Program-made: the position numbers and the translations under genes
Part shown: in pieces, positions 23,064 to 45,029 of the stretch
Layout of the letters: every line of letters starts with the position of its first letter
How positions within the stretch are numbered: position 1 is the stretch's first letter
Source of the DNA: Candidatus Zixiibacteriota bacterium
GTDB lineage: Bacteria; Zixibacteria; MSB-5A5; JAABVY01; JAHJOQ01
Length of the DNA stretch: 64,000 nt
Direction of reading: 5' to 3'
Assembly (NCBI GenBank): GCA_018820315.1
Contig: JAHJOQ010000092.1
Span: 6,591-70,590 of the forward strand
Notes under the pieces: generated by a model
Database searches by the model: none
What the model was told of the DNA's origin: nothing
Seen by the model: only the letters and a program-made list of their open reading frames with translations

Positions 23064-23987
23064 TTATCCTCCGATTCCTTCCTCTACATTCGTGGCTCTT
23101 TCTCTGAGTTGCTCAAGCTTGGTGTCGGTATATGTACTCCAGAGAACGGGAACAGCTACTGCAGCAAGAAGAAAGAGTATGATGATCATCGAGTAAAACA
23201 AATATGCCGGCTTGCGCTGCGAGATAATCAATCTCAGGTAACGTCCACTCAGGAACGCTCCTTTGATCTTACGGAACAGCTCACCGAACCAGCCAGCAAC
23301 TCGTGCCCAGAAATCGCCTTTCTTCAGGTAACCCCACTCCGACAACAACTGCTTAAAGAGTCTATTCTTCGAACCGAGCTTCGTGAATGAATCGATCCTC
23401 AGCAGGTGAAACTCGAGGGATGCTCTGTCCTTAAGGAGATCCTCACCGAGTTCCTGGCGTCGCCGAGCAAGCTCAAGAAACTTCATCGGATCGCTCATCG
23501 AATTGAATGCCTCAGGCGTGAGGTCGCCTCTCAGGCGCTTGCCGAAGGTGTTAAGGAATCGGGCTATCTCCCGCAGGAAAAATGCGTTTAACTGATAGTT
23601 GTCTTTAAGGCTTCCCGGTTTGCAGAGCATGGGTACGAGGTGATTCTCGAAGAATGGCACATCCTGCTTCACGGCTCTGAGCCCGCGGCAATGCGAATAG
23701 GCTTGATTCGAACGGCCGTCAGTATCCGCCTCAGACTCGAAGTACGTGATAAGTATCTGGACTGCAAACTGCCTGAGGTCCGATGTTGTCAGAGGATTCT
23801 CTCGCACCCGGTCAAGCAGAAAGTAATCAAGCTCGACAGCCTGGTCGCGCTGCTGACGAAGCGGCTGGAAGACAGTATAGACACCGTTGTAGGTCTGAAA
23901 GAACGCTTCAGTCTTGAAGCTCGAGTACTTAGTCTCGTAAGTGTTGATGTATTTAAATAAGTCTTCTACGTAGTTCTTCATTTTCAT
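23064..23987 (-). CDS. T6SS membrane-complex candidate: cytoplasmic domain with single C-terminal TM anchor (TssL/DotU-like architecture)
   Basis: 307 aa, soluble about 260-aa N-terminal domain. Then YLFYSMIIILFLLAAVAVPVLW TM and a short tail, as in tail-anchored TssL. Placed directly after tssK. Confidence 0.4.
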   Translation of the reverse strand: MKMKNYVEDLFKYINTYETKYSSFKTEAFFQTYNGVYTVFQPLRQQRDQAVELDYFLLDRVRENPLTTSDLRQFAVQILITYFESEADTDGRSNQAYSHCRGLRAVKQDVPFFENHLVPMLCKPGSLKDNYQLNAFFLREIARFLNTFGKRLRGDLTPEAFNSMSDPMKFLELARRRQELGEDLLKDRASLEFHLLRIDSFTKLGSKNRLFKQLLSEWGYLKKGDFWARVAGWFGELFRKIKGAFLSGRYLRLIISQRKPAYLFYSMIIILFLLAAVAVPVLWSTYTDTKLEQLRERATNVEEGIGG

Positions 23988-24009
23988 GGCTTCCTTGCCT
24001 GGTCAATTG

Positions 24010-25528: not shown

Positions 25529-26437
25529 CTATACATAACTGGAATAGCCGAGATAACCACAATCTGCTTTTCTCCCGATCTGCATACGTTTTTGCTCGCC
25601 CATAACTTTTATTTGGCTGACAAGATTGCTTGGCATGCACAGGTCGAGCGCTCTTTCCACTTTTTCTCTTATACGCCCACCCGGCACAAACTCGCCGATG
25701 TCTTCAGTCTTCACATCTCTGATGATGACGTCATAGGCAGAATCGCACTCTGAAAATGACCGTCCCACGAGCGAGTTCACCGCGAGTCTGCTCTCTGCCG
25801 ACCCAAGACTGAAACAAATCCCTCTCGCTATTTCAAATGTTGATGACACGTTCTCGATGATTTGACACTCATATCCGGCCAGATGCGTGAGAACCTTCTC
25901 GACCAACTCAGCATTGCCTGCCCAATGATGGTACATGGGGAGAAGAGTGAACCAAAACATAAGCTCCGAAAATGAACCTGAATGTCGATCGGAATCAAAG
26001 TCGAATAACTTGAGAAAGCGGTGAAGATGCTCCTCTTCGACAAAACTAAGGCTGAATGTGAGAGCATCTCTCTTCGCAATGGACGTGTATCTTATCACCG
26101 AAGCATCAAAAGGTGCCATCAGTTTCCGGGATTGCATATCCCAATCGTCGGTGCGGGCAGTGGAGCCACTGAGTCCGTAAAAGAACTGATACGGCATATA
26201 ATCAACTGCACTATTGTAGCCTATCATCAGGACAATTTTGGAGCCAGGCCCGACTGGAGTTCCCGCCGAAGGATTCTGTTCAATAACTTCGCCCTTGTAG
26301 TTTTCGTACTCGCCGACAGCAAGTATATCTACACTGCGGATATCAATGCAGGTCTTGCCGAGAATGTTGAGAGCAGTGGCGAAGTGAAGCGGGTGCCGTC
26401 TACTGCAGAGCTCAGGCATTATCATTTCATCGGTCAT
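25529..26437 (-). CDS. tssG: T6SS baseplate subunit TssG-like (gp7/gp53-like), assigned mainly by size and position
   Basis: 302 aa. 4-nt overlap with the upstream tssF-like gene. Canonical tssE-F-G order. Confidence 0.4.
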   Translation of the reverse strand: MTDEMIMPELCSRRHPLHFATALNILGKTCIDIRSVDILAVGEYENYKGEVIEQNPSAGTPVGPGSKIVLMIGYNSAVDYMPYQFFYGLSGSTARTDDWDMQSRKLMAPFDASVIRYTSIAKRDALTFSLSFVEEEHLHRFLKLFDFDSDRHSGSFSELMFWFTLLPMYHHWAGNAELVEKVLTHLAGYECQIIENVSSTFEIARGICFSLGSAESRLAVNSLVGRSFSECDSAYDVIIRDVKTEDIGEFVPGGRIREKVERALDLCMPSNLVSQIKVMGEQKRMQIGRKADCGYLGYSSYV

Positions 26438-28104
26438 TGACGAGTGATCTCCACTTTGTACTGGGTGTTCACCGGCGACTTGGCCTTAAGGAAACTCGTC
26501 AGCCTAATGCGAAGCAACGCCACCTCATCTTCCGATAGAAAGTCATCCGCCTTCACGGTGGCGGTAACCGCTATACATCGGCGGACACCGCGTTTGGTTC
26601 TCTCCGTAGAGTTGCGGCACTCGGCCTTCTGTATTCTCGGATCGAATGTTCTCGTCCAGGCCGAGATCTCTTTGAAATTGACTGCGCGATCACGACTGCG
26701 CAACCTTCCAGTTGCTTCGATCATGATCTGCTCCGCAGTCTTAGCCGGAACGCCCCCTCGGGTGGGGAGGATGTTCGTCACAGCCGTCAGTCCGGGATGC
26801 TTCTCGTAAAGCTCATCAATCTTGCCCGCCTCTATCCCGTTCGCCCTGTTCTCCGCAGTTACAGAGTAGTTGACGGTAAGTGAATCGGGAGGGGGTTCGA
26901 AGAAGGGTGAGAAATCGAACCAGAGAACTTGACGATCTTCCCGCTCTTCGATTGAATAAACACGCGGCGACTTCTCCGTCTGGACCTCGTAGCTGGGTAG
27001 ATATGTCCTGCCGGAAGAATCAGTCACTTCCACGATTTCGAGCACACTTGAACTGCGATCCGGAAGTTCTATCTCGACAAGCATGTTACCGCCTGTATGT
27101 TTGAAAAGCGTCAGTTCGTTTTTGTTTGTTGCGACGAAGCAATTGAACCTGATTCCGAAACGAGATGTCAATTTGCCCCTGTCGCCCCCTTCGGGAAGAT
27201 CAAGCCTCATCCAGAAGAGGTCCTTTTCCGATGCAGTGATCTCGATTCCATTCTTGAACATCAAATCAGCTATCTCGCGATTCGCAGGACCCCTTTCCCA
27301 CGCCGACACAAAGCTCTCGGTAGGAATCACAAAGCTGTCTTCGAGGGGACTGTACAGGTCACCGCTGGAGCGCAGCCCACCCCAATCCGGAGTGGATTCA
27401 TCATCGTATCTGAAGATATCTTCGATGGATGTCTCCAGCCCAGGGCAGAATCGATTCACGGTGGAAAACGCTCCAGACTCCATACCGGGACACCAGTATG
27501 ACCATCGTAGCTGCCTGAGTACTTCGGATGATCCGTTCAGATATATTAGTGAGTCCTTGAAATCGGAAGCGATGCCCGAGTATTCGATCGCAACATAAAT
27601 CCGGTCGGCTACAATCGATGAAGCGGAGCCTGCTTTGTGCCCAGCCTGCGAGACAGGGGGGAGATCTTCGCAGACATCCTTCAGCTCGTCACCGTATCGT
27701 AACAGGACATGCCTAACCTTTGCGGACATTAGTTTCTCTGTCCGATGCGGCGAAAAGAAGAATGTCTCGCCCCCATCGCGTTTTTCTCTGTAAATGAAAA
27801 GCGTCCGAGGATCGACTTCGACAGTCGGATCGGTCAATTCACAGCTCATGATCGTGAATGCCGGCACTGGCCAGCGCTTACATTCCGGGAACAGGGATCT
27901 GATCAGTGAGCTCTTGGCGACTTCCCAGACCGACATTACCCGATCTTCGATTCTCTCCAGTTGATGCGCTTGCATCTGGAGTAGCATTCGCAGGATCGGG
28001 TCCAACCGCTCCGATGACTCAGGAACGTCGGGATTCCACTTCCGGAGTTCCCGATGCATCTCTGCAAAAATCTCATCTTTGTTTCTCGATTTCTCAGTCT
28101 TCAT
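26434..28104 (-). CDS. tssF: T6SS baseplate subunit TssF-like (gp6/baseplate-J-like), assigned by size and position
   Basis: 556 aa, immediately downstream of gp25-like tssE and upstream of the tssG-like gene. Confidence 0.42.
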   Translation of the reverse strand: MKTEKSRNKDEIFAEMHRELRKWNPDVPESSERLDPILRMLLQMQAHQLERIEDRVMSVWEVAKSSLIRSLFPECKRWPVPAFTIMSCELTDPTVEVDPRTLFIYREKRDGGETFFFSPHRTEKLMSAKVRHVLLRYGDELKDVCEDLPPVSQAGHKAGSASSIVADRIYVAIEYSGIASDFKDSLIYLNGSSEVLRQLRWSYWCPGMESGAFSTVNRFCPGLETSIEDIFRYDDESTPDWGGLRSSGDLYSPLEDSFVIPTESFVSAWERGPANREIADLMFKNGIEITASEKDLFWMRLDLPEGGDRGKLTSRFGIRFNCFVATNKNELTLFKHTGGNMLVEIELPDRSSSVLEIVEVTDSSGRTYLPSYEVQTEKSPRVYSIEEREDRQVLWFDFSPFFEPPPDSLTVNYSVTAENRANGIEAGKIDELYEKHPGLTAVTNILPTRGGVPAKTAEQIMIEATGRLRSRDRAVNFKEISAWTRTFDPRIQKAECRNSTERTKRGVRRCIAVTATVKADDFLSEDEVALLRIRLTSFLKAKSPVNTQYKVEITRQ

Positions 28105-30817: not shown

Positions 30818-32245
30818 TTACTTATCCTTTACGCTCGTCTGGTCATCCTGATTCCAGGCAGTGAACTCGATATTGAATGTCCTCGCTGGATATTTCGGAT
30901 TGAGCGCGACCTTAATATCGATCTCCTGACGCTTGCGCATCTCTTCATCAGCAAATATCTCGACGCGATAATCCTGAAGAATATTGTCACCGCCGCTAAT
31001 CGCTTTCATAAATTTGTCGATGTCGCGACGCATAGTGTCGACAAATTTCTGATCGATCACGGAGAACGTCTGTTTGTTCAGGTAATTGCGCAGAGTCTTA
31101 TACACATAATCGTATGTGCGACGAATGGAGTAGACGTTGAACGTCTCCTTGCTGAACAGTGTCGCGGCACCCATAGAAACTGCCGTGCCTTCAAAGCTGA
31201 CCATCGGGTTGACGCCTTTTTCATTTATCTTGCTGGCATCCGGCTGATTCGCCTTGAACCTCAGATACTTCGCATCGGCAATCTTCCCATGCTTGAAACC
31301 TGCCATCGGCTGCTGCATGCCGACTGTTGTGTCACCCTGGTACATCTTGCCGGCGACTGACGCTGACGGTGGTATCCACATGTCCTCGTCTTCGTACTGG
31401 TTCTGCTCGCGAGCCAGAAGGTAGTTCGCGAACACCGATACATACTGCTTGTAGTTGTCGATTCCGGGAAGGTTGGCGTAGTTTGGATCGTCGAGCATGT
31501 CCATGACTTCCTCGACACTCTCCAGATTGGGGAGGTCAGTCATGATGTGCAGCTTGTTCGGGAGACCGAGCTGTCGCGCGACGGTGTCAATGTTTTCGAC
31601 ACTGCCGAGATAACCGGGGATCACGGCCATCGAGAAGCAGTCTTTGATACTCCACTCGCGATAGAGATCGGCGACAGCTTTCGACAATTCCTCGAATTTC
31701 TCCTTGTCATCGGGATCGACCAGTTCCTCTCCGCTGACATTGGCGAAGTAGGCATTGACCTTCTCGTCCGGTTCCTGCTGGGCATTTGCGAAGAACTTGT
31801 CAATAGCGCGATAGGTCGTCTCAAGTTCGCGTGACTCCCTGTGCACTTTCTTCATATTCTTTTCGAGATTCGCCTCGAGCTTGGTAGACTGCTCATTAAG
31901 GCTCTTGCGGATGGTCTCGATATTTTCTTCCTTCGCGAAATTGTCTATCCAGATTCGCAGGCGCTCGGCGAGAAGTTTCCGTTGAGTTTCGAAGTCCTTC
32001 TTGGTCAGGAATTCTTTGCGCTGAAAGTCCTTCTTCGGATCGAGCCATTCTACGCCCCGAACGAGATCGCCATCAGTGGTCTTGAATGACGGAAGCAGTC
32101 CTGCCAGCTTCTTGAAATCACCGAATGTATCCCCCAGTATCGCCGCAAATTCCTCATCCGATACTTTCTCGACTTCGAGTGCTGGCTTTGCCGCGGCCGC
32201 CTCAGCAGCCTCTGCCTGTGGTTCCAATTTCTCTTCTTCACCCAT
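30818..32245 (-). CDS. tssC: T6SS contractile sheath large subunit TssC (VipB-like)
   Basis: 475 aa, acidic N-terminus. Immediately downstream of the tssB-like gene and upstream of hcp. Confidence 0.58.
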   Translation of the reverse strand: MGEEEKLEPQAEAAEAAAAKPALEVEKVSDEEFAAILGDTFGDFKKLAGLLPSFKTTDGDLVRGVEWLDPKKDFQRKEFLTKKDFETQRKLLAERLRIWIDNFAKEENIETIRKSLNEQSTKLEANLEKNMKKVHRESRELETTYRAIDKFFANAQQEPDEKVNAYFANVSGEELVDPDDKEKFEELSKAVADLYREWSIKDCFSMAVIPGYLGSVENIDTVARQLGLPNKLHIMTDLPNLESVEEVMDMLDDPNYANLPGIDNYKQYVSVFANYLLAREQNQYEDEDMWIPPSASVAGKMYQGDTTVGMQQPMAGFKHGKIADAKYLRFKANQPDASKINEKGVNPMVSFEGTAVSMGAATLFSKETFNVYSIRRTYDYVYKTLRNYLNKQTFSVIDQKFVDTMRRDIDKFMKAISGGDNILQDYRVEIFADEEMRKRQEIDIKVALNPKYPARTFNIEFTAWNQDDQTSVKDK

Positions 32246-32261
32246 CTATCTTCACCTCTTT

Positions 32262-32702
32262 CTATTCGCTCAAAAGATCGATGTAGTAAGCCATGACTTT
32301 CAGAAGAGCTTCTTTCTTGTCACTGTCCTGAAGGATCTTCTGCAGGGATTTGTTCTTCTTAAGCTGCTTGTCGAGATCGGACATCATCTCTTTGCTGTAA
32401 TATGTTTTCTGGAGATGCTCATTTTTCTCGATGAGTTCCTTGGACGTGAAATCTTTCATCGCCCGGATATCAAAGTCGCCGTTGACAGGCTCGCCGTCGG
32501 CAGTCTCCATCTCCACTGAGAAAGACGGCTGGAATTTCTCAAAGACTTCTTTGAGGTTGTTGCATCTCTTCGGTGCTACGTCGGCTTCCTCGCTGTTGTT
32601 GAGTTTTGCCGCGTACAACATCTTGTTGGAAGGGAGAAGTTCGACCGGGATAGAATCATCCCGTTGGATCTTCTCGGTCGCTCCCAAAATGAACTTCGCC
32701 AT
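32262..32702 (-). CDS. tssB: T6SS contractile sheath small subunit TssB (VipA-like)
   Basis: 146 aa. Architecture and C-terminal helical segment (FTSKELIEKNEHLQK...KEALLKVMAYYIDLL) resemble VipA. Adjacent to tssC. Confidence 0.55.
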   Translation of the reverse strand: MAKFILGATEKIQRDDSIPVELLPSNKMLYAAKLNNSEEADVAPKRCNNLKEVFEKFQPSFSVEMETADGEPVNGDFDIRAMKDFTSKELIEKNEHLQKTYYSKEMMSDLDKQLKKNKSLQKILQDSDKKEALLKVMAYYIDLLSE

Positions 32703-32733: not shown

Positions 32734-33831
32734 TTATTTACTTCTCTCAGTGGTGAACGTGTAGTTGTCGTCCTTTACTCCTATGTTAACACGATCTCCA
32801 GCTTTTATCTTACCGGTTATTATATCAACTGACAGTCTGTTGACGATATCTCGCTCAATGATTCTCTGGATCGGTCTTGCTCCGAGCTCGAATGTGTAAC
32901 CATCCTTCGCCAGTTTCGACTTCGCTTCCTTGCTGAGAGTGGCCTCGATATTCTGGTCAGATAGCATACCGCAGAGATTGTTGAATTCAAGACCCGCTAT
33001 CACTTCTACCTGCTCCGGCGTGAATGTGTGATAGATAATGATGTCATTGAGACGGTTCAGGAACTCCGGTCTGAATTTGCTGAAAAGGAAAGTGCGAACT
33101 TCATCCATATCGACATCGCGACCCTCTCTATCAGCATCCAGAATCTTGTCTGCGGCATAGTTCGACGTTAGTACGACGATCGTGTTGGAAAAGTCGACGG
33201 TTCGATTCTGTCCATCTGTCAGCCTGCCATCATCAAGAAGCTGCAACAGAACGTTAAAGACATCGGGGTGAGCTTTCTCGGTCTCATCAAAAAGCACGAT
33301 AGAGAACGGTTTCCGTCGCACCGCTTCCGTCAGAACACCTCCAGCCTCATATCCGACATATCCGGGCGGAGCGCCTATCAGCTTGGCGACAGAGTGCGAC
33401 TCCATAAATTCCGACATGTCGAGTCTAACCATTGCGTTCTTGTCGTCGAAGAGAAACTCCGCAAGCAGCTTTGGCAGATATGTCTTGCCGGTGCCGGTAG
33501 GTCCGAGAAACAAGAACGACCCGACTGGTCTGTTTGCAAGCTTCAGTCCAGCCCTTGCCTTGCGAATCGCATTGGCTATAGCTTCAATCGCCTTCTCCTG
33601 CCCGACGATTTTCCTGGACAGGAATGATTCCATATTGATCAGACGGTCTTTTTCTGCTGTCAACATCTTGGAGACAGGTATGCCGGTTCGGCGGGCGACG
33701 ACAGAAGCAACATCAGCGTCCTCAATTGTGCGCTCTATGGATTCAGCCACTTTCTTCAATGGCGCGAACTTCCTCACCTTCTCGTCGAAATCCTTCTTCA
33801 GGAGTTCAATGTTTGTGACATCTATAGGCAT
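32734..33831 (-). CDS. clpV: ClpV/ClpB-type AAA+ ATPase, C-terminal half (M-domain remainder + NBD2 + C-terminal small domain)
   Basis: VGQEKAIEAIANAIRKARAGL sensor block. Walker A GPTGTGKT. Walker B VLFDETEKAH. Sensor-2 region LDDGRLTDGQNRTVDFSNTIVVLTSN. Start ATG shares one A with the stop of the upstream half (TAATG). Confidence 0.8.
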   Translation of the reverse strand: MPIDVTNIELLKKDFDEKVRKFAPLKKVAESIERTIEDADVASVVARRTGIPVSKMLTAEKDRLINMESFLSRKIVGQEKAIEAIANAIRKARAGLKLANRPVGSFLFLGPTGTGKTYLPKLLAEFLFDDKNAMVRLDMSEFMESHSVAKLIGAPPGYVGYEAGGVLTEAVRRKPFSIVLFDETEKAHPDVFNVLLQLLDDGRLTDGQNRTVDFSNTIVVLTSNYAADKILDADREGRDVDMDEVRTFLFSKFRPEFLNRLNDIIIYHTFTPEQVEVIAGLEFNNLCGMLSDQNIEATLSKEAKSKLAKDGYTFELGARPIQRIIERDIVNRLSVDIITGKIKAGDRVNIGVKDDNYTFTTERSK

Positions 33832-35288
33832 TATTCCACCCCCTCAGAAGCTTCGACCCGATGTCCCCAGAATTCCTGAAGGCGATCGAAATTTCTGGAG
33901 AAGTCATCATACTTCTCCTGAAGTTCATCGAATTTCTCTTTCTCCTTGTCGGGATTCTTGCCTTCCAAAGCTTCTATTAGTCCTTTCAACTCAGCGATGT
34001 TGGTCTCGATCTCAACGACTCGAGTTTTGCTGAACTCTTCTTTGACCGCAAGCTCTGATGCAGATTCATCAACGAGGTCGAGGGCGATGTCAGGGAGGTT
34101 CCGTTCGCTGAGATATCGCATCGCATATCTTACTGAACCTGTTATAGCCTCATCCGTGAACGATATCTTGTGATGGTCCTCGTACTTCGCTATCACGCCC
34201 TTAACTATCCTTACAGCGTCATCGAAATTAGGCTGCTCGACTTTCACCCGCTCGAATCTCCTGTCGAGTGCCTTGTCTTTTTCGATGTACTTGGTGTATT
34301 CTTCCTCGGTGGTAGCACCGATCAGCCGCATATGGCCGCGCGCGAGGGCCGGCTTGATGAGGTTTGCCGCATCCATGCCGCCCGATACGTTACCAGCACC
34401 TACCAACGTGTGGATTTCATCGATGAACAGGATAATCTTGCCACCGGATTTGACAACTTCGCTGACTAATGACTTGAATCGCTCTTCGAATTCGCCCTTG
34501 TACTTCGCACCCGCAACGAGCGATCCCATGTCGACAGCCATGACTTTAACATTCTGGAGGGCTTTCGGAACCTCGTTAGCGATGACCGCCTGAGCAAAGC
34601 CTTCGACAATAGCGCTCTTACCGACTCCTGCACCGCCTACCAGTGAGGGGCTATTTTTTCTGCGCCTCAGAAGAATCTGGATCAGCTGCTGAAGCTCCTT
34701 TTCGCGGCCGATCATCGGGTCGAATTCGCCTGCAGCCGCCTGGTTAGTCATGTCGATACAATACTTGAGCGTGCCTGCGATTTCTTTCTTACCTTGCGCC
34801 TCGGCGCCTGTCCCGGACAAAGCAGCACCTGCCGTTGCGATCTCCTCAACAGACTTGGTGTCTGCTATTGCTCGATAGATATCTTCTTTCTTGATATCGA
34901 CCTTTTCACGCACATAAGGGGAGAGGCCCGACTTCGGATCGAATACTGCTATGAAAATGTGCTCGGGCTCAACAAGAGGATCGAACAGCTTAGCTTTCTC
35001 TTCCAGAGCATCGGTCAAAGTATCCTGCACGGCAGGGGAGACTGTCTGGTTCTCTTTGGTCGATGACCTCTTCGGAATCTCTTTCAGGTGCTCCTCCGCG
35101 ATCGCTTCGATGAATGCGACACTCTTGCCAAGCTGATTCAGTATCGACTCGACTTCAGAGGAATCATGTCGAATCGTCGCGATAAGGAGGTGTTCGACGT
35201 AGATTTCCGGGTGCTTGAATGATGCTGCTACTTCACGGGCGACTCGAATTACCGCCCGGGAATCAGCCGAATAACTTGCGATATCCAT
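33831..35288 (-). CDS. clpV: ClpV/ClpB-type AAA+ ATPase, N-terminal half (Clp_N domain + NBD1 + start of coiled-coil M-domain)
   Basis: Clp N-domain repeats. NBD1 Walker A LVGGAGVGKSAIVEG. Walker B ILFIDEIHTLVGAG. C-terminal coiled coil ending at a TAA that overlaps the next ATG. Confidence 0.8.
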   Translation of the reverse strand: MDIASYSADSRAVIRVAREVAASFKHPEIYVEHLLIATIRHDSSEVESILNQLGKSVAFIEAIAEEHLKEIPKRSSTKENQTVSPAVQDTLTDALEEKAKLFDPLVEPEHIFIAVFDPKSGLSPYVREKVDIKKEDIYRAIADTKSVEEIATAGAALSGTGAEAQGKKEIAGTLKYCIDMTNQAAAGEFDPMIGREKELQQLIQILLRRRKNSPSLVGGAGVGKSAIVEGFAQAVIANEVPKALQNVKVMAVDMGSLVAGAKYKGEFEERFKSLVSEVVKSGGKIILFIDEIHTLVGAGNVSGGMDAANLIKPALARGHMRLIGATTEEEYTKYIEKDKALDRRFERVKVEQPNFDDAVRIVKGVIAKYEDHHKISFTDEAITGSVRYAMRYLSERNLPDIALDLVDESASELAVKEEFSKTRVVEIETNIAELKGLIEALEGKNPDKEKEKFDELQEKYDDFSRNFDRLQEFWGHRVEASEGVE

Positions 35289-35459: not shown

Positions 35460-36665
35460 TTACTTCGGCGCAAATCTATCGGACTCAATGTAATTCACAG
35501 TTTCGCTGTCTATCTCAATGCCATCAGTGTAGGTCACCCTAGCCAGAGAGAGTCTCCTGAACGTTCCGTTTGAAATGACCAGGTAGTCAGAGAATTCGCA
35601 GTCGCTGATCGCCACGCCAGTCATCTGTGCTCCCTCGAAGTTCGCACCTGATATCTTGCAGCTGGTAATCTCTCCACCAGATCCGAAAACTGACTCTACG
35701 CAATAGAGATACGCGAGATTGCTGTTGCGTAGGGTGAGGCTATCGACCTTGGAAATGTAGATTTTCGGCTCCGACATCTTCTCGCAACTGTCGATCGTGA
35801 GCAGCTGGCAGTCAGAGTTGACGATGTTGAGGCCATTGAAACCGCTGCATCCGAGGATGATCAACTGCTGGATCTTCGCTTTTCCAAAGGAGATGCTCTT
35901 GCTTTCGCATTTTTCAAACAGGAGCTTCTTTATAGTGCTTTCACCGAAGCTGCCTGACATGATGTTCGACTCAGAAATCTTTAGATCGTCGATTTTGGCA
36001 TTGCCGAATACAACGAGTTCCAACTTGCCGTCAATGATCTCAGTCAAGTCGAATCTGGCATGATAGAGACTTGTGTTGTGCCAATCTGGTTTGATTAGCT
36101 TGGTGTTAATGAACTCTGCCCTGGTGTATATACCGGAATCATCGGCGCAATTGCTAAATGTGCATTTTCTGAAGGCTGCATCACTTAGCTTTGCTCTAAC
36201 GCTTCGGCAGTCTGTGAAAGAACAGTTGTTGAATGTGCTCTGTTCAAAAGATACACCTCCGAATTCACACTCAATAAAACGGACATCCGTGAACTGGGAA
36301 TTCGAGAAGTCGTCGGAGGCGAACTTGACATTTCTGAACTCCGAATTTGTGATCCGGGCTTCCCTGCCCGCGACATTCTTAAATCCAATGTTCTTCAACG
36401 ATGACTGATTAAGCACGATGCCGGATATGTCCAGTTCCTCAATCAGCTTATCCTCGACGTGCCACCCCAACTGACCGACTTCGGCATTGAATTTCTCAAT
36501 GTCTTTGAGATCACTTTTTTCCTTGTCGCTTAATTCGGACGTCATACAGGAAACTCCTCCCAGGCTGATCATGACCACGAATACGAGCCATATCCGCAAG
36601 GGCTTAACGGTATTTCTCAAATCGCCTTCTCCACTCATAGTCGGGTATTTCGGCTCGGTCCACAT
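35460..36665 (-). CDS. pentapeptide-repeat protein with N-terminal signal/anchor (TagAB-like T6SS accessory candidate)
   Basis: Long runs of A(D/N)LxX-type pentapeptide repeats across aa 90-390. N-terminal hydrophobic segment LRIWLVFVVMISLGGVSC. Confidence 0.72.
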   Translation of the reverse strand: MWTEPKYPTMSGEGDLRNTVKPLRIWLVFVVMISLGGVSCMTSELSDKEKSDLKDIEKFNAEVGQLGWHVEDKLIEELDISGIVLNQSSLKNIGFKNVAGREARITNSEFRNVKFASDDFSNSQFTDVRFIECEFGGVSFEQSTFNNCSFTDCRSVRAKLSDAAFRKCTFSNCADDSGIYTRAEFINTKLIKPDWHNTSLYHARFDLTEIIDGKLELVVFGNAKIDDLKISESNIMSGSFGESTIKKLLFEKCESKSISFGKAKIQQLIILGCSGFNGLNIVNSDCQLLTIDSCEKMSEPKIYISKVDSLTLRNSNLAYLYCVESVFGSGGEITSCKISGANFEGAQMTGVAISDCEFSDYLVISNGTFRRLSLARVTYTDGIEIDSETVNYIESDRFAPK

Positions 36666-39600
36666 CTCTTTCGATTGTATACACTTTGTGAGTGTCAGTT
36701 CCGAATATCCCTCCGCCAGAGGTGTCCGAGTCTATCTGAATCTCGAAGTTCCACCTGCTGTCGAAATCGTAATGGGAAACGAGAGGGCTTCTCTGATTGA
36801 ACTTTATCGACATGAAGATTGATCGCTCGTTGTTGCCGGCAACGAAATTGAAGAACGTCTGCGCATCCCTGCCGCGCGGTATTATCCATCGGCTTGAGCC
36901 GTCATATTGCATCTGAATCTTTTTCCACTCTCCATCGGCGGCATAGACATAAATCACAATGTCTTCCAAATTCACTAAATTGCGTACATGCTGGAAAATA
37001 ACCAATCTGAATCTGTAGTCGACCGTCCCGCGATGTTCGTCGCGGATGAGGAACTTGTCCGATTCGAATGTCTCAAGGACTCGATCATGGTGACCGATTG
37101 TCGGGTTATTTTCAAGTATGTCATAATAGTCAACTGCTACCGCTATTCGCGGCTTTGTAGCCGCCTTGACAGGCTCCATCCTCTCGACATCACCCGCTGA
37201 ATCGAAGCAGATCTTCGAACCTGCCGAGTGGTCACTTCCCACGCCGTTGAACTCGCCTGCCTTGTTGAGTCTCGGATGCGGCCCTGCGGAGTCTGACACT
37301 ATCACTATGGGAGTGACTCGCCTGCCGGTAGCTCTAAGCGCAGGATAATCTGAGAAATCGTAGTAGCTGGTTTTCACCGAATTGTCACCGCTGTAATCTA
37401 GTCGGTTAATGGTGTAGAAGCCTCTTCGATGCGAATGCCCCGTCAATACGACCTGTATGGTGCGGCGAGTGACAAGATGTTCTTCATAGAGCGGCTGTCT
37501 GTTGGTCTCGAATGTCCCCTGATCATGATCGTCTGCATCCCAGTATGTGTCGAATTCCACATCTCCCTCTTCAGCAGTGCTCATGGGGATGCTTTCGAGA
37601 TAGCTGACAAATGTGAAGTGGCTTGTGAATATGATCTTCTTCTGATCTTCGATTGCGCGGTTCAACAGTGCAAGCTGAGTGTCGGTCACTGGATCATCGG
37701 CTCTCGGAAGATGGCCGAAGCCCTGATCTATTCCGGGGAAATCTAGCACATCTTCCTCATCTCCCCACGCCATTCCGACAAGGTTTTGGTCAGGAAATCC
37801 TGAAGCGAAATCAGAGAAAGGAGTGAACACAGTATAGAACCACTGAAGTTTCTCGTAATGGAACGTACCCATTTCCTTGACTACCCCATAAGTCTCTCCG
37901 AATGCGAGTGTCGCTTCATAGATGGTCAGATTGTGATCCGCAGCGATGCCGGGATTGGCACGGACCCATGCGACTCGAGGAGAGATACCGTATGGCAGCG
38001 CATACGCATCGTGATTTCCTGTGACAACGTAAACGGGCTTCTGATATCTCTTGTAGAAATAGACTATGAGCGTATATAGGGCGATAGCGTCAACATAATC
38101 CTGATATCTTGATTCGTATGAATCGTCGAGGGCAACCTGATCCCAAATCTGCTTAACCGTTCTACTTGTCCTGTCCGGATAGAGCATTTTGTTGAAATCA
38201 ATGAGATCTCCTGTAAGCATGAGCGCGTGGATCCCAGGATCACTTCCTACGCGGTCAAGCAGGGACTTTATGATGCGCGTGGAGACTCCAATCATAGAAC
38301 CTATTTTGGGAGAATCCTCCAGCGGGATTTCTTCCTCAGCGACAATCAGCGTCACTTGAACCTGCTGTGGCGAGTTGTTCGCCTCCGCAGATGAGATCGT
38401 AATCGAAGACTGATATGTGCCTGGTTCCCTGCCGCTGGCATTGGTGGAAATGAGAGCTGAATTTGGATTGTCGGATGTAGTAACGCCCGATGCAGGACTG
38501 ATGCTTACCCAGTCATCATCTGGAGCTGCAGTCCAATTCAGTGTGTCGCCTCCGGTATTGACTATGGTGACCGATTGAGGTCCTGTGTCGGCACCGCCCG
38601 GATGTGCAACAATCGCAACCGACTCGGGAGAAACGTGAAGGTGCGGAGGATTCTCAGTCTGTGGTGGCGGAGAGGAGGGAGGCACGACGATCTCCTCTCC
38701 CGGATATATCAGATCGGGATCGCCGCTTCTGAGACGCTGCGAATTCGGGATACCTGTTCCGCCGTCATAGTGCCAGAGCTGCTGCCATGTCATGCCATAG
38801 CGTGAGGCAATCTTGGAAAGCCAGTCGCCGCTCACAATGACATAGATGTCATATGTCGGGGCGGGAGAGGGGGGAGACTGAGAATCAGATTGAGTCTCCG
38901 ATGGTGTCTCAGATGATGGCGGTGCGCCTTCGGATGGCTGCGCTGCGACCGTCTCAAATGGATACTCAATGACCCTTGCTTCGCATCTGGACAATACGGT
39001 CTGCCTTGCGGCAAGGTGAATGTCTGTCAGATGTCCCATGTTCAAGTATGGTGGGCATTGCTCGTAATAGACCACAGGATGATAGGCCTGAATAGGGTTC
39101 ATCAGATCCGCTTCTGTGTGGTCAACATCATCTTCAGTTAATCTATAGCAGTACTGTCCACCCTCGATTATATTGGGACCATTCATATTTCGGAGAACAG
39201 TTCTTATTTGATCATCCTGAATCTCGTTTGATGTAATCTTTCCCGGTTCGACGCGATTTAGAGTATGTGTTGGAACGACACCCGGTCCGGATGCGGGAGC
39301 AGCACCGGCGGATGTTATCTCATGCCAGGTCTGATCATGCGGATAGAGCCAGAATAGATTATTAACACCGTTGGCGAGCAGATTAGTGTGTCTGATGGAG
39401 ACGCAGTACAACTGCGTGTACGCCGCGTCACGAAGCATCTGAAGGGATTGGCTGTCAAGAACCCCTTTGAATCTGGTGTCAGTGGCTATGACATTTTCAT
39501 CTAAGACTATACTGCGGAAAGATATTTCAACCGACCCATCCAATTGCGAAAGAGGATTAACTGAGAAACTTTTGGCCGGATCAAGGCCTCCGGTGATCTT

Positions 39601-39786
39601 TATCTGATAATCGATGTTGTCATTGGATAGTGTATAACCGTCATTTAGGAGTATTAGCAATTCAATATCCCGGGGACTCTGCGTGCCCACGACTACCTGC
39701 GGGGTTAGCAGCGACGGATATAATATCATTGCGGGAATGGCATAAATTACATCGTGACGTCTTCCGGTTGTACCTTGTGGACTCAT
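36604..39786 (-). CDS. large multidomain protein (1060 aa): N-terminal domain, Pro/Ser-rich linker, LysM peptidoglycan-binding domain, Ig-like domain, calcineurin-like metallophosphoesterase domain
   Basis: LysM: YDIYVIVSGDWLSKIASRYGMTWQQLW...LIYPGEEIVVP. MPP motifs: ALMLTGDLID, YVVTGNHDAY, VLTGHSHRRG. Confidence 0.6.
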   Translation of the reverse strand: MSPQGTTGRRHDVIYAIPAMILYPSLLTPQVVVGTQSPRDIELLILLNDGYTLSNDNIDYQIKITGGLDPAKSFSVNPLSQLDGSVEISFRSIVLDENVIATDTRFKGVLDSQSLQMLRDAAYTQLYCVSIRHTNLLANGVNNLFWLYPHDQTWHEITSAGAAPASGPGVVPTHTLNRVEPGKITSNEIQDDQIRTVLRNMNGPNIIEGGQYCYRLTEDDVDHTEADLMNPIQAYHPVVYYEQCPPYLNMGHLTDIHLAARQTVLSRCEARVIEYPFETVAAQPSEGAPPSSETPSETQSDSQSPPSPAPTYDIYVIVSGDWLSKIASRYGMTWQQLWHYDGGTGIPNSQRLRSGDPDLIYPGEEIVVPPSSPPPQTENPPHLHVSPESVAIVAHPGGADTGPQSVTIVNTGGDTLNWTAAPDDDWVSISPASGVTTSDNPNSALISTNASGREPGTYQSSITISSAEANNSPQQVQVTLIVAEEEIPLEDSPKIGSMIGVSTRIIKSLLDRVGSDPGIHALMLTGDLIDFNKMLYPDRTSRTVKQIWDQVALDDSYESRYQDYVDAIALYTLIVYFYKRYQKPVYVVTGNHDAYALPYGISPRVAWVRANPGIAADHNLTIYEATLAFGETYGVVKEMGTFHYEKLQWFYTVFTPFSDFASGFPDQNLVGMAWGDEEDVLDFPGIDQGFGHLPRADDPVTDTQLALLNRAIEDQKKIIFTSHFTFVSYLESIPMSTAEEGDVEFDTYWDADDHDQGTFETNRQPLYEEHLVTRRTIQVVLTGHSHRRGFYTINRLDYSGDNSVKTSYYDFSDYPALRATGRRVTPIVIVSDSAGPHPRLNKAGEFNGVGSDHSAGSKICFDSAGDVERMEPVKAATKPRIAVAVDYYDILENNPTIGHHDRVLETFESDKFLIRDEHRGTVDYRFRLVIFQHVRNLVNLEDIVIYVYAADGEWKKIQMQYDGSSRWIIPRGRDAQTFFNFVAGNNERSIFMSIKFNQRSPLVSHYDFDSRWNFEIQIDSDTSGGGIFGTDTHKVYTIERDVDRAEIPDYEWRRRFEKYR

Positions 39787-39810: not shown

Positions 39811-40677
39811 TCAGTTCTCTCTTTCAACTTCAATGGAGCATCTTCCGGGCGGAACATCTTCCTCCCTCGCAGTGCCATCTCCGCCAAATGTACCTCGTCG
39901 CTGGCTTCCGTCAGCAAGATGGAGAATGTAGCTCTCGTTTCCGGTATAGTTGAGAACTCTGATCTCAATCCAATCCTTGAAGATCAATAACCCCGATTCT
40001 TGCTCCCGCCCATACTCAATATCATTGAGCTTGATCGTGAAGAAGTACTCCGGGGAATTGTAATTGCGACCGTACTCCTGCATCTCTTCTTCTGTCGGAA
40101 TTTCGTCAGTATCTTCGTGATATTCGTATTCCCATTCCTGTTCGATTTTATCATCGATCACTTCAGCCCTCAGCTCAGTGATCTTGTCATGAGCACTGTC
40201 GCGATCATATTCATAGATGGTAAGCATCACCTCGGTATGGGGGCGAACATTCCTCACATCGGCTGAGAGTGTGAGCGTGTCGCCTCTGCGAGCCTCGCTC
40301 TGACTCCATCTCATGTTCGAAATCTCCGGAGGAGGCACAACGGGTATTCTGTCCGATTCACCGTCCAGTCCGTTGTCTGGAAGCTTGACCTCGAAGTATA
40401 TCTGATCGTCTATTTCGGTGTCTTCCGGGATCTCGAATTCGCCGTCGTAAACGTTGTTGCTGATTGTGGCGCTGATCTTGCCAAGATTCTCGCCATTCTC
40501 GCTCTTACCTTTGATCTTGATCTTAGCGCCGTTACCGACGAACGCCGTCCCAATCGTGAAGCCGGCAGTCTGACCTGCAATAGCCGCGCCCCGTTTCCAG
40601 ACCGCATAGATCAGCGACGAATCGAGCTCGATCTCGTGTTCTTCGTCGGTGCTTTTGTTGAAAGTCAGATCAGGCAT
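39811..40677 (-). CDS. hypothetical acidic protein (288 aa) in T6SS accessory region
   Basis: Long ORF with good coding periodicity, co-oriented and tightly packed with neighbours. No recognisable motif. Confidence 0.4.
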   Translation of the reverse strand: MPDLTFNKSTDEEHEIELDSSLIYAVWKRGAAIAGQTAGFTIGTAFVGNGAKIKIKGKSENGENLGKISATISNNVYDGEFEIPEDTEIDDQIYFEVKLPDNGLDGESDRIPVVPPPEISNMRWSQSEARRGDTLTLSADVRNVRPHTEVMLTIYEYDRDSAHDKITELRAEVIDDKIEQEWEYEYHEDTDEIPTEEEMQEYGRNYNSPEYFFTIKLNDIEYGREQESGLLIFKDWIEIRVLNYTGNESYILHLADGSQRRGTFGGDGTAREEDVPPGRCSIEVEREN

Positions 40678-41116
40678 CGTCTACTTCTGCAATTTCGTAC
40701 GTTCCGGGTACGAGGGCTTCGATCAGTTTCATCATTCCGACGCCGACAGTCTTCAATGTCTTCTTCGAAAACTCACCGGAAAATGTGAACCCGATTCCGT
40801 CTTTTATCACAAAGACATATTTGTGGATAGCTTGTACTCCGCCGGATGGTGTCCACCTATAGACGAATTCGTGCGCCTGATTGCCTCGATCGAGAGTGAT
40901 AGCTTCATCTTTGAGAACATCAACTCCTTGAAGAGTCGATTTTATCGGATCGATCCACTCCTTCGCGAAGTCGGCAACATCGAGATGTTGAAGCTGTCTG
41001 TTCAGCACAAGTGTCACCTGATGTGCAGTCTCGCCGTCGCTCGGTCCTCGAAAATGATAAACGGTTTGATCTTCCCAGCCACGGGGAATGTCCAGCTTGA
41101 AAATAGTCTCACTCAT
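40670..41116 (-). CDS. hypothetical small cytoplasmic protein (148 aa); adaptor/chaperone or immunity candidate
   Basis: Co-oriented, 8-nt overlap with the downstream gene. Compact alpha/beta-like composition. No signal peptide. Confidence 0.4.
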   Translation of the reverse strand: MSETIFKLDIPRGWEDQTVYHFRGPSDGETAHQVTLVLNRQLQHLDVADFAKEWIDPIKSTLQGVDVLKDEAITLDRGNQAHEFVYRWTPSGGVQAIHKYVFVIKDGIGFTFSGEFSKKTLKTVGVGMMKLIEALVPGTYEIAEVDDA

Positions 41117-41118
41117 AG

Positions 41119-42027
41119 TTACTTCTCTAATGACCTGATGAAGCGTTCCGCCTCTTTAACTTGTCCTTCACTATATATCAGAAACTCATCTGTTTCGAAC
41201 GAGAAGGGTCTGTCATACCATACAGCGATAAGATTGATTGCTGCGTCGCATACACGGGCGAACTCCGGGTCCGCTTCGGGATGGCCGATGTCATACGCAT
41301 CTGAAGTATCGGCGAGGGCTGGGAGGAGACGTGAAGCGAGTCGCTTATCACTTATGTATTCCAGAGCAAGAATGACATCATAGCGACCCTCAAGAGGGGG
41401 AGTATCGATCTGAGACGCAAATTCATTCTTGAATTCCTCGTCGCCAAGCCTGGCCATGGCCAGTTTGATCTGTTTTCCCACGTTTGCATCGTCTTCCTGA
41501 TCAAGTTGTTTCCGGAGAGGCTTCATCGCACTCGCATCATCGATTCTACCGATCAATCGAGCTACGCCGCCCCTCACCACCGCATCTGTGTTGCTTAGGT
41601 TTGCTATCAAACCCTGCAGGATAGCACTGCTGATGCGAGAGCGGATGGACTGCAGAGCCGACGCGCGGACTTGAGCATCTTTGTCCCACAGGGCTTCGAC
41701 CAGAACAGTCGGGACACTCTCATCGTCGGTGAGCACCACGCAACTGAGAGCAAGCTCTCTGGTCTCGGGGTTCTCATTCTTAAGCAGCTCCAATAAGACC
41801 GGCATTGCAGGTGAACCGATCTCCTCGGCCTGGAGGAGTGCGTCATCGCTATCTTCCAGAACGGCTTTTCTAAGGCTATCGAGTTCCACTTTGTGTTCCC
41901 CTCTGCTTCTTTGCTGATCTCGGCCACCACATGCGATGTGGACGGCAACTACCAACGTCAGCACCAAGAGATACCAAGTGCTGACTCTCACGAATTTCAT
42001 CCTGTTCCTGCTGTGCCTATCAATCAA
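41119..42027 (-). CDS. HEAT/PBS-lyase repeat protein with N-terminal signal anchor (periplasmic; immunity-protein candidate)
   Basis: N-terminal TM VSTWYLLVLTLVVAVHIA. Repeated HEAT-like helical pairs (PETRELALSCVVL..., DAVVRGGVARLIGRI..., GKQIKLAMARLGD). 4-nt overlap with the upstream effector gene. Confidence 0.55.
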   Translation of the reverse strand: MIDRHSRNRMKFVRVSTWYLLVLTLVVAVHIACGGRDQQRSRGEHKVELDSLRKAVLEDSDDALLQAEEIGSPAMPVLLELLKNENPETRELALSCVVLTDDESVPTVLVEALWDKDAQVRASALQSIRSRISSAILQGLIANLSNTDAVVRGGVARLIGRIDDASAMKPLRKQLDQEDDANVGKQIKLAMARLGDEEFKNEFASQIDTPPLEGRYDVILALEYISDKRLASRLLPALADTSDAYDIGHPEADPEFARVCDAAINLIAVWYDRPFSFETDEFLIYSEGQVKEAERFIRSLEK

Positions 42028-43733
42028 GGATTCCTGTAAAAACTGGCTGACGACGCATGCCTCCGCGCATTATGACATTCATTGTCAGTTCGATCCGCTG
42101 GATTGTCTCTAATACTGATATCTGCGCCCTTATTCCGATTACCGTACCCGACGTTATGGCACCATCGATCACCCGCTCGCGACTGAAAAGGCCAGAGACC
42201 GTACATAAGTCTCTTGAGTGACCAGAAATCGGTCTTCTTGTGTGCAGAGTCGGGATCATCCTCTGAATGCGCAAGCGACGGATTTCTGAATCCATTTGCG
42301 AGCGCCATAGCATGGCCAAGTTCATGGGCGAGTGTCCTACCGATTTCGACCGCAGTCGAATTGAAGGCTCCACCCGTGCTGGCAAGGGCAATCCCCACGA
42401 GAGGCCAATTTCGATATCGCTTTGTCGAGTAGGTGATTCCGAATGCACCCTCTATATTTCGCACTACATACAGATTCAGTTTATTATCCTCAGTGGCGTG
42501 TCCCTCGGAGTCATTCGTCGTCATGATCGTGCGATATTCGGCATTTACCGATCCCCACGTTATGATGCCGGATCGCGACAGTGTCACAGCTTTTTCACGC
42601 CAGGCTGCAGTTCTGAATCTGACTCCGATTGGCCAGAGAATTTCGTTCGCAACGGCGATAGCATCATTGATCAGTGCCTGATTCCCGACTGGCGCCATTG
42701 CGCCGGTGTAATGAACACCACCCGTATCGTGGTCGGAGCCGTTTATTGTCAACCAATAGGGGCGAATAGTCTTGACTATCAGGGGAAGCACAACCACCTG
42801 AAGCGAAGCAATTTCTATTCGCTCCCGACCGCGCTTGAATTTGATCTTGACCGATGTGCTTCTCGGAACCGCTCCGCTGGGAGTCTTGGTCCGAAGCTGA
42901 AGTATGATTTCCCTGCCTGTCGGCAAAGGGTCGGGTGACACTACTTCCACGAGGGCAGTGTCCTCACTTTCCGCCATCAGTGACGTATTGCTTGCGAGGC
43001 ACTCTCTGGTCAGCTTGAGACGAAACGGCGTCTCGCGTGCCATCGTCACAACTGGCCCCTCCAAGTCAATATTGGCACATTTAGTTTCTATGAATCCTCT
43101 GACATCCGGTTCGGGAGCTCTGCCCCAGGGGCGTCCGGATGTAACCGTTGCATCAGTGTTCGACGGTGCCCTTTCGAATCGAACCAGCGAACGACGAATA
43201 ATGAAGACGTCATCAGTCGTATTGTCATCATCGGTAACCGAGTTCAATCTGGTTCGTGTTGTATTCCTGGCAATGCCGTCTGTTCTCAATCCGGTATCAG
43301 CCTGAAATCTCAGAATGGCTTCTTCCGATGCCTTGCCGAAGGTGCCGTCGACTTTGCCCGTGTAGTAACCGAGAAGCTGCAGTCTGCGTTGTATACCGGC
43401 CTGCATGGTGCCGTGCCCCACGCCTGAGTTTGCATTGCAATCGCCGAGAGTATCCCAGGCTGCCAGACAGATATCTTCGCCTGGGGCAGGTTCATTGATC
43501 TCACCATGTAGCTGCTTGACGACATAAGTTGTGCCGAGGACCGTCAATCGAGCGGTTCCGCCTTGGGCGATGCGCAGACCATAGTAGCCGTTGCCTTGCG
43601 GCCTGACCGGCGTATCCGAACCTTCAAGTGTGGCATCGCCACCATTGATAATGCTGTCGGCGTCGACGCCGGGTACTTTCTGAAAGCTTAGCAGCACATC
43701 AGCGGTCGTTGCCTCAACTTCCTGGTGACACAT
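42024..43733 (-). CDS. T6SS effector candidate: peptidoglycan-binding domain (PG_binding_1) + C-terminal HExxH zinc metallopeptidase domain, no signal peptide
   Basis: IQRRLQLLGYYTGKVDGTFGKASEEAILRFQADTGLRTDGI matches the PG-binding repeat. RTLAHELGHAMAL is a zincin HExxH site. Located immediately downstream of the PAAR gene. Confidence 0.62.
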   Translation of the reverse strand: MCHQEVEATTADVLLSFQKVPGVDADSIINGGDATLEGSDTPVRPQGNGYYGLRIAQGGTARLTVLGTTYVVKQLHGEINEPAPGEDICLAAWDTLGDCNANSGVGHGTMQAGIQRRLQLLGYYTGKVDGTFGKASEEAILRFQADTGLRTDGIARNTTRTRLNSVTDDDNTTDDVFIIRRSLVRFERAPSNTDATVTSGRPWGRAPEPDVRGFIETKCANIDLEGPVVTMARETPFRLKLTRECLASNTSLMAESEDTALVEVVSPDPLPTGREIILQLRTKTPSGAVPRSTSVKIKFKRGRERIEIASLQVVVLPLIVKTIRPYWLTINGSDHDTGGVHYTGAMAPVGNQALINDAIAVANEILWPIGVRFRTAAWREKAVTLSRSGIITWGSVNAEYRTIMTTNDSEGHATEDNKLNLYVVRNIEGAFGITYSTKRYRNWPLVGIALASTGGAFNSTAVEIGRTLAHELGHAMALANGFRNPSLAHSEDDPDSAHKKTDFWSLKRLMYGLWPFQSRAGDRWCHNVGYGNRNKGADISIRDNPADRTDNECHNARRHASSASFYRNP

Positions 43734-43740
43734 GAATCAG

Positions 43741-44916: not shown

Positions 44917-45029
44917 GGTTCCCCGGAGTTGTCTCTCGTTCAATCAACGGCAGAAAAGTTAAGAATGTTTGCGGCAGGAGTCAACAAATAGTTGTCAGGG
45001 GTGTTTCACCATTTGTGCTCAGATTCGAC

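Follow-up and report, generated by a model that had tools for sequence, protein, structure and literature searches.

Tandem-AAA+ unfoldases (ClpA, ClpB, ClpC, ClpV, Hsp104, p97 and NSF) are, to our knowledge, always single chains, and ring-ring communication within them is an active mechanistic question. Motif 2 of the ClpB M-domain binds DnaK, and Francisella uses its ClpB to disassemble the sheath of its type VI secretion system (T6SS). In ClpB the M-domain is inserted between helices 3 and 4 of HD1, HD1 helix 4 comes after the M-domain and is itself followed by the essential TGIP loop, and a tryptophan (W462/W463; W463 in Mycobacterium tuberculosis ClpB) marks the boundary between motifs 1 and 2 (PMC8209680). 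Laboratory split constructs had already shown that an arrangement in two chains can work: NBD1-M and NBD2 of Thermus thermophilus ClpB can be produced as separate proteins (PMC4239642), and Beinker et al. 2005 (J Biol Chem 280:37965) state activity without covalent linkage in their title. Here we report on a naturally split unfoldase of the ClpV/ClpB type, encoded by two adjacent open reading frames (ORFs) within a T6SS cluster of a Candidatus Zixiibacteriota bacterium (assembly GCA_018820315.1, contig JAHJOQ010000092.1, positions 6,591 to 70,590). This stretch of 64,000 nucleotides is referred to below as the window, and all coordinates without a locus prefix are counted from its first letter.

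We consider it very likely that the two ORFs, here termed clpV-N (ORF1, chain 1) and clpV-C (ORF2, chain 2), result from a genuine and fixed fission of tssH/ClpV, and that they are coupled cistrons giving rise to a two-chain unfoldase that recycles the T6SS sheath. The features of the pair are the following, in the order of transcription.

33831..35288, minus strand: clpV-N (tssH-N), 485 aa, with Clp_N, NBD1 and the M-domain motif-1 hairpin (ORF list of the window, Pfam, AlphaFold, Foldseek)
34854..35288, minus strand: Clp_N double-repeat domain, ORF1 aa 1-145 (Pfam; model helices 8-152)
34068..34775, minus strand: NBD1 alpha/beta core and HD1 helices 1-3, ORF1 aa 172-407 (residues invariant in 69 sequences)
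33846..34067, minus strand: M-domain motif 1, an antiparallel helical hairpin, ORF1 aa 408-481 (AlphaFold; alignment to Escherichia coli ClpB)
33852..33872, minus strand: F-W-G-H-R-V-E motif near the ORF1 C-terminus, including W474 (homologue C-termini; ClpB alignment)
33836..33845, minus strand: Shine-Dalgarno (SD)-like GAGGGGGTGG, which contains a G5 run, within the variable tail of ORF1 (sequence)
33829..33833, minus strand: TAATG stop/start overlap with one A in common (sequence)
32734..33831, minus strand: clpV-C (tssH-C), 365 aa, with an N-terminal helix, HD1 helix 4, TGIP loop, NBD2 and D2-small (ORF list of the window, Pfam, AlphaFold)
33742..33810, minus strand: N-terminal amphipathic helix of ORF2, aa 8-30 (AlphaFold, predicted local distance difference test (pLDDT) 60-78; family alignment)
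33673..33720, minus strand: HD1 helix 4 and TGIP loop, ORF2 aa 38-53, DADVASVVARRTGIPV (invariant residues in 71 sequences)
33040..33531, minus strand: NBD2 (AAA_2), ORF2 aa 101-264 (Pfam, invariant residues)
32782..33021, minus strand: D2-small domain, ORF2 aa 271-350 (Pfam ClpB_D2-small; sensor-2 invariant)

The original prediction had described a 485-aa ORF with Clp_N and NBD1 followed by a 365-aa ORF with NBD2, adding up to about 850 aa, and coordinates, lengths (485 + 365 = 850 aa) and Pfam matches all agree with it. ORF1 matches Clp_N (PF02861, E = 1.2e-9), AAA and AAA_lid_9, its AlphaFold model has a mean pLDDT of 83, and its Foldseek matches are ClpC, ClpB and Hsp104; ORF2 matches AAA_2 (E = 3.6e-62) and ClpB_D2-small. 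The source annotations of the halves are generic ("AAA family ATPase" and "Clp protease N-terminal domain-containing protein").

Alignment to E. coli ClpB places the cut with some precision. ORF1 can be aligned up to ClpB residue 465, with W474 equivalent to the boundary residue W462, and ORF2 from its residue 30, equivalent to ClpB 525, so that the 59-residue motif 2 of ClpB gives way to about 29 residues at the N-terminal end of chain 2. The M-domain is thus cut where motif 1 meets motif 2, and motif 2 is largely deleted. In the AlphaFold model of ORF1 two helices (residues 400-441 and 450-481; pLDDT of about 90 up to residue 480) form a complete antiparallel hairpin, some 4 residues past which the chain ends (...VEASEGVE), and the model of ORF2, the N-terminal peptide of which is MPIDVTNIELLK, opens with one further helix (residues 8-30). 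Hence the earlier statement that the ORFs are split within the coiled-coil M-domain holds, whereas ORF1 does not end midway through a coiled coil, as had been supposed. Chain 1 carries the N-domain, NBD1, HD1 helices 1-3 and the motif-1 hairpin, and chain 2 carries the short helix, HD1 helix 4, the TGIP linker, NBD2 and D2-small; a piece of the NBD1 module, namely HD1 helix 4 with the TGIP loop, therefore resides on the second chain. The same place is found when Staphylococcus aureus ClpC is aligned instead, ORF1 residue 469 being equivalent to ClpC 462 and ORF2 residue 26 to ClpC 461, which puts the break exactly where the ClpC hairpin returns to HD1. The end of chain 1 is conserved as the motif [FY]WG[HY]R[VL]E in the C-termini of 120 homologues, and the residues equivalent to W474, G475 and R477 are invariant in an alignment of 40 ORF1 C-termini.

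On the minus strand the junction reads ...GCT TCT GAG GGG GTG GAA TAA TG CCT ATA GAT..., where the stop TAA (33833..33831) overlaps the start ATG (33831..33829) by one A and ORF2 occupies the -1 (+2) frame with respect to ORF1; the TAATG overlap and the change of frame noted before are thus read directly in the sequence. The purine-rich GAGGGGGTGG stands 4 nt upstream of the ORF2 ATG, and the frame of ORF2 is closed by a TGA four codons before that ATG. A single inserted base can fuse the two frames only within a 14-nt stretch, and because this stretch holds the G5 run, it was worth testing whether the split is an artefact, that is, whether a single-base indel in the G5 homopolymer (33839-33843) has broken one ORF of 850 aa. 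Seven contigs carry an identical ORF2, and two independent assemblies inspected at the junction, the MEGAHIT-style ENA contig ERZ27247117 (0 mismatches in 2500 nt against the window) and the Logan assembly of SRR10598173 (1 mismatch in 2300 nt), both show the G5/TAATG junction of the window exactly.

Comparison with other loci argues in the same direction. Junctions were compared at 35 loci (the window, L001 and L002, and another 32 from metagenomes that were retrieved by the pattern Lx[GED][FY]WG[HY]R[VL][ED]), which differ in nucleotide sequence and are all split; L114 and L116 are split as well by gene calls. The junction is ATGA at 24 loci, a one-base overlap (TAATG or TGATG) at eight and a 2-nt spacer at two, and in L002 the genes stand 37 nt apart with another frame offset (+1); the genes consequently overlap by 4 or 1 nt at 32 of the 35 junctions. 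ORF2 has its own ATG at every locus compared, and GGAG, GGGAG or GGAGG precedes it in the printed junctions of all 35 (by eye, unscored), at a distance of roughly 4-12 nt; an SD core is present in about half of the long ORFs of the window. Most junctions contain no homopolymer, which is hard to reconcile with an indel in a G run. Taken with the stop/start overlap, the SD-like motif inside ORF1 supports, as far as gene arrangement can, the view that clpV-N and clpV-C are a translationally coupled pair, and the original prediction of an unfoldase of the ClpV/ClpB type in two coupled ORFs is borne out by relatives in which the halves are likewise separate and joined by typical coupling junctions with an SD-like motif.

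After WGHRVE, the ORF1 tail (33834..33851 in the window) consists of 5-10 variable residues rich in Gly, Ala and Glu in the homologues P0001-P0120, with a near-invariant Gly 3-4 residues before the end that is probably the protein-level trace of the embedded SD motif, a case of dual coding. The first seven or so residues of chain 2 are variable too, so the break sits between two free, poorly constrained tails.

The same junctions bear on a second alternative, already raised in the original prediction, in which programmed -1 ribosomal frameshifting yields a single fused ClpV. At all loci of the Zixibacteria type, ORF2 does occupy the -1 frame with respect to ORF1, and tRNA-Gly could slip on G GGG G in the window. 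Nevertheless, a constant frame offset is also obtained when the position of the stop shifts by point mutation without indels, and no slippery heptamer of the form X_XXY_YYZ, the signal proposed as a check, was found at any of the 35 loci. In seven of them (L002, L090, L096, L099 and L105-L107) the frame of ORF2 is closed 0-1 codon before the ATG, with no open codon at all in two, so that no frameshift could join the frames there. L002 has its 37-nt spacer and +1 offset, L083 has 181 nt between the genes as a result of a palindromic insertion, and each locus has the ATG of its own and the SD-like motif described above. Frameshifting is therefore rejected as a conserved mechanism, and we regard it as very improbable that it explains the split.

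The insertion in L083 is a nested palindromic element of about 118 nt, resembling a miniature inverted-repeat transposable element or a repetitive extragenic palindrome (MITE/REP-like), and lies exactly between clpV-N and clpV-C (L083:4160-4334); it has inner arms of 18 nt, and outer arms, GTAGGTCGGGTTCCGA and TCGGAACCCGACCTAC, with 100% complementarity. A junction duplication of about 36 nt retains the ORF1 tail and stop as well as the SD motif and ATG of ORF2, leaving a 181-nt spacer where relatives show ATGA. L083 is thus a natural uncoupling of both cistrons.

The split extends well beyond the loci with printed junctions. We examined the best 120 homologues of each half, the ORF1 list being composed of one representative per 90% cluster. 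All 120 ORF1 homologues measure 455-511 aa (118 of them 479-491 aa; identity 67-94%), with none of about 850 aa among them, and all 120 ORF2 homologues measure 352-376 aa (identity 77-100%), so that all 240 listed homologues are half-length. Most carry a Zixibacteria label, several ORF1 homologues lie on megabase contigs of Zixibacteria metagenome-assembled genomes (MAGs), and ORF2 is 100% identical to an NCBI protein labelled "candidate division Zixibacteria bacterium". A scan of genome contigs with ORF1 returned mostly housekeeping Bacteroidota ClpB, fused and without T6SS neighbours, and only L001 and L002 were informative. L002, deposited as Ignavibacteria, is cut at the same place at 42% identity in ORF1 and 53% in ORF2, and its clade comprises 22 clusters with an ORF1 of 471-484 aa; separate ORF1 proteins of 479 aa and 463 aa occur in L114 (P0295) and L116 (P0301). 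These distant split lineages are about 40-45% identical. The order clpV-N, clpV-C, tssB, tssC, tssD, vgrG is found in all four lineages, and clpV-N, clpV-C, tssB, tssC, hcp, vgrG, tssE in all examined loci with enough downstream sequence. L001, L002, L114 and L116 also have tssB directly after clpV-C, and a TssB match is present in 27 of 33 metagenome loci, the other six being contigs of at most about 4.5 kb with little sequence past the junction. The search for the same split in related genomes, suggested at the outset, was thus positive in all 240 listed homologues, in the 35 junctions and in distant lineages, and these sequences indicate that the split is real, conserved across hundreds of related uncultured bacteria and evolutionarily fixed.

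The taxonomic labels of these homologues have to be read with care. One 90% cluster, that of P0271, has members labelled Ignavibacteria, Zixiibacteriota or 'bacterium' by different depositors, and the labels of further split homologues read Acidobacteriota, Planctomycetota, GN15 or Deferrimicrobium. Since MAG labels are inconsistent, the phylum-level distribution of the split is not readable from them.

Artefactual splits of ClpB do exist, and one candidate for a split outside a T6SS cluster was dropped as a frameshifted canonical ClpB. This protein (P0309; L115:6001-8644), with 66% identity to Bacteroidota ClpB and without a T6SS cluster around it, is broken into ORFs of 482, 41 and 357 aa by frameshifts around 7415-7437. 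It has a full motif 2, and the match continues in another frame about 150 nt upstream of the called ATG of the second gene; to judge by its name, the contig may come from a long-read assembly. The broken gene, probably a pseudogene or an artefact, serves here as a negative control, which the split clpV does not resemble: homology is continuous over the break in the control. Although the G5 run does fall inside the only 14-nt stretch in which a +1 insertion would fuse the frames, the identity of independent assemblies and the split state of 35 differing loci lead us to reject the assembly error that had been put forward, the probability of which we take to be negligible.

Conservation of the catalytic residues addresses a further explanation, namely that a ClpV gene in a degenerating T6SS cluster has recently suffered a frameshift and is a decaying pseudogene. 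Invariance was scored over 69 ORF1-type and 71 ORF2-type sequences. In NBD1, Walker A (G218-K224), Walker B (D290-E291), Y263, R343 and R344 are invariant, as is the pore loop A259-R270 to which Y263 belongs; in NBD2, the invariant residues comprise Walker A (G110-T117), Walker B (D182-E183), R254, the pore loop G153-G160 with Y158 and the sensor-2 residues G317, A318, R319 and P320. The Walker motifs, pore-loop tyrosines, arginine fingers and sensor-2 are thus retained over identities of 40-94%, the split is common to lineages only about 42% identical and the T6SS cluster in the window is complete. Nothing beyond the split itself speaks for decay, and we give it practically no credence.

Invariance is not confined to the catalytic sites. 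Residues 38-62 of ORF2 are among the most conserved of the protein: V44, R48, T49, G50, I51 and P52 are invariant in the ORF2-type sequences, and M56, T58, E60 and D62 are also highly conserved. When chain 2 is modelled alone, this segment has a pLDDT of about 50. A segment that is conserved and at the same time modelled with low confidence is the pattern expected of folding on a partner. For a ClpP-docking loop, on the other hand, no [ILV]G[FL] tripeptide was found in the short ORF2 segment between TSNYAAD and FRPEF.

From these features we propose a mode of assembly. Both cistrons would be translated separately from one mRNA and, being coupled, would yield about as much of one chain as of the other. 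Chain 2 would then dock in trans, through its HD1 helix 4 and its helix 8-30, on HD1 helices 1-3 and the motif-1 hairpin of chain 1, rebuilding one ClpV-like protomer as an interlocked heterodimer, and six such heterodimers would form a two-tier ring of 6+6 chains. This ring would thread and unfold TssC, with the consequence that contracted TssB/TssC sheaths are disassembled; its work is proposed to be independent of DnaK because motif 2 is missing, and independent of ClpP because there is no IGF-type loop. ClpC(1-485), the equivalent of chain 1, was crystallised with MecA as a stable fragment (PDB 3pxg), and the crystallised T. thermophilus NBD2 fragment (4lj4) starts just before HD1 helix 4, as does ORF2 past its first helix. 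We think it probable, with somewhat less assurance than for the fission itself, that the pair represents the first class-1 Hsp100 of two chains found in nature, a ClpV that is an obligate 6+6 heterododecamer with separate NBD1 and NBD2 rings, an HD1 complemented in trans and a split M-domain, and that this arrangement is fixed across Zixibacteria and related lineages with a T6SS-iii-like system. A search for published split ClpV, TssH or ClpB proteins and for a Zixibacteria or Ignavibacteria T6SS found none, a weak negative given that most subscription journals lay outside the search.

Alternatively, both products could be real without forming a joint machine, with chain 1, for instance, working alone as a sheath-binding ATPase of one ring while the NBD2 chain acts separately or with other partners. 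The isolated NBD1-M of T. thermophilus ClpB has been reported as an active, oligomerising ATPase (PMC4239642), and the stability of ClpC(1-485) in its crystals with MecA can be read in the same way. However, the two genes are adjacent at every locus and overlap at 32 of 35, similar constraint acts on both halves, ORF2 holds the invariant HD1 helix 4 and TGIP loop, which structurally belong to the NBD1 module, and the FWGHRVE motif at the end of ORF1 is conserved although it would be a free end. We therefore judge two independent machines to be unlikely.

Several observations weigh against the proposed two-chain ClpV and should be set beside it. The assignment to TssH comes from gene context, as both the halves and their sum fall below the family cut-offs (TIGR03345, TssH: 399.2 bits for ORF1 and 306.1 for ORF2, sum 705, cut-off 884.95; TIGR03346, ClpB: 423.7 + 456.9 = 881 bits, cut-off 1232.1). 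A PDB search with the N-domain gave weak generic matches (3zri, E = 0.015; ClpC N-domain, E = 2.5e-5), with weak matches also to the N-domains of Hsp104 and Vibrio cholerae ClpV; it did not separate a ClpV-like from a ClpB/ClpC-like N-domain, and the domain appears to be without specific similarity to T6SS-i ClpV N-domains. The existence of two polypeptides, their 1:1 complex, the 6+6 ring and the disassembly of sheaths are what we infer from the genes. The G5 run of the window could allow occasional -1 slippage and a minor fused product, of which ...EASEGGGIMPIDV would be the expected junction-spanning peptide. Finally, the monophyly of the split clade has a bootstrap value of only 63%.

This last value stems from a neighbour-joining tree of 73 full-length or concatenated sequences, in which the 16 split proteins form one clade (63/100) whose sister is P0125, a fused protein of 814 aa. 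P0125 was obtained from a representative-library search with ORF2 that otherwise returned mostly fragments and multi-domain oddities, and its gene stands immediately before tssB-tssC-tssD-vgrG-tssE. It too has a short M-domain without motif 2, and at the cut site it has a Pro/Gly/Ser-rich loop, ...PQIRSQLGEFPETPSDGSE.... These sequences are most simply read as one fission, within a surface loop, of a fused ancestral tssH, after which the split state was long retained; because the bootstrap is moderate, more than one fission event is conceivable. It may be added that the NBD1 Walker B of P0125 (JGI 3300075153) is DD (ILVIDDFHEL) and not DE, so its first ring may be without ATP hydrolysis.

The genes that follow the pair place it in a T6SS cluster.

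32262..32702, minus strand: tssB, VipA-like small subunit of the sheath, 31 nt downstream of ORF2 (Pfam T6SS_VipA)
30818..32245, minus strand: tssC, large subunit of the sheath and presumed substrate of the unfoldase (Pfam TssC PF17541, E = 2.5e-69)

Downstream of ORF2 and on the same strand come tssB, tssC, hcp/tssD (PF17642), vgrG, tssE, a tssF-sized ORF, tssG and a tssK-like ORF. With the sheath and tube families of subtype iii, PF17541 (TssC) and PF17642 (TssD), both present in the window, the cluster is a complete T6SS of the Bacteroidota-like (T6SS-iii-like) type. In subtype iii, TssN-TssR membrane- and baseplate-associated proteins replace TssJLM. The tssF-sized ORF (26434..28104) has no Pfam match. 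The region downstream of tssG (20829..25458, minus strand) opens with the tssK-like ORF of 482 aa, which has a weak VasE match; past this gene, ORFs of 307 and 177 aa have no Pfam match at E up to 0.01, and a 731-aa ORF has weak sub-threshold Pfam matches to DO-GTPase2 and IcmF-related_N. Current models give poor coverage of the membrane and baseplate components of this T6SS.

On the other side, directly upstream of clpV-N (35460..39786, minus strand), a 401-aa pentapeptide-repeat protein and a 1060-aa protein with LysM, BACON and calcineurin-like phosphoesterase domains are encoded by ORFs that overlap by 62 nt (36604..36665), and these may be effectors or accessory proteins of the cluster. 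Farther upstream (40670..44943, minus strand) are genes for a PAAR protein with a carboxypeptidase-regulatory-like domain and for peptidoglycan-binding, HEAT-repeat and DcrB-like proteins. PAAR and DcrB-like genes are again found upstream of the split clpV in L114 (L114:1-2688), and their recurrence in so distant a lineage suggests a conserved accessory module. At the edge of the cluster (region 45077..47530) there is a tRNA-Thr gene (45077..45150), after which the plus strand encodes a Peptidase_C10 (streptopain-like) protein of 712 aa that contains a thrombospondin type 3 repeat.

If the proposed assembly is correct, inter-ring communication in tandem AAA+ unfoldases needs no covalent linker in vivo, and fission could permit control of assembly at the level of the rings, or exchange of subunits, during sheath recycling. 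Nature has cut a tandem unfoldase between its rings and kept it so through divergence down to about 40% identity, thereby providing an evolution-tested system in which to study ring-ring coupling without a covalent link and the transmission of signals by the M-domain and by HD1 helix 4 with the TGIP loop. The same system would be of use for the study of sheath recycling by T6SS-iii-like machinery outside the Bacteroidota. From a practical standpoint, T6SS detection tools that demand a full-length TssH may score such clusters as lacking the ATPase.

Among the closest known systems, ClpV/TssH has the domain inventory of both chains in sum (Clp_N, NBD1, a short M-domain, NBD2 and D2-small), and it likewise lies beside tssB and tssC, lacks motif 2 and the ClpP loop and has both ATPase sites and pore loops intact. 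The system described here differs from it in having two polypeptides, in belonging to a Bacteroidota-type (T6SS-iii-like) cluster and in an N-domain that does not look specifically ClpV-like. As regards the definition of a class-1 Hsp100, Clp_N and two intact AAA+ modules are present and the single polypeptide is not. The fused P0125 shares the T6SS gene order and the short M-domain, but it is a single chain with the Walker B DD, and it has a loop where the split clade has a stop, an SD motif and an ATG. Each half finds its best matches, in sequence as in structure, among ClpB and Hsp104 (with the ClpB of E. coli, T. thermophilus and M. tuberculosis), and ClpB also has the boundary Trp, HD1 helix 4 and the TGIP loop; it differs, however, in being one chain, in having a full M-domain with the 59-residue motif 2 and in not being encoded within T6SS clusters. 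ClpC (Bacillus subtilis, S. aureus) has a short, one-hairpin M-domain of a length like that seen here, but it is a single chain that has a ClpP-docking loop and depends on adaptors such as MecA. The engineered split of T. thermophilus ClpB, like the natural one, is cut between the AAA modules near the end of the M-domain; in that laboratory construct the cut follows a complete M-domain, whereas the natural cut follows motif 1, so that one helix stays with the NBD2 chain.

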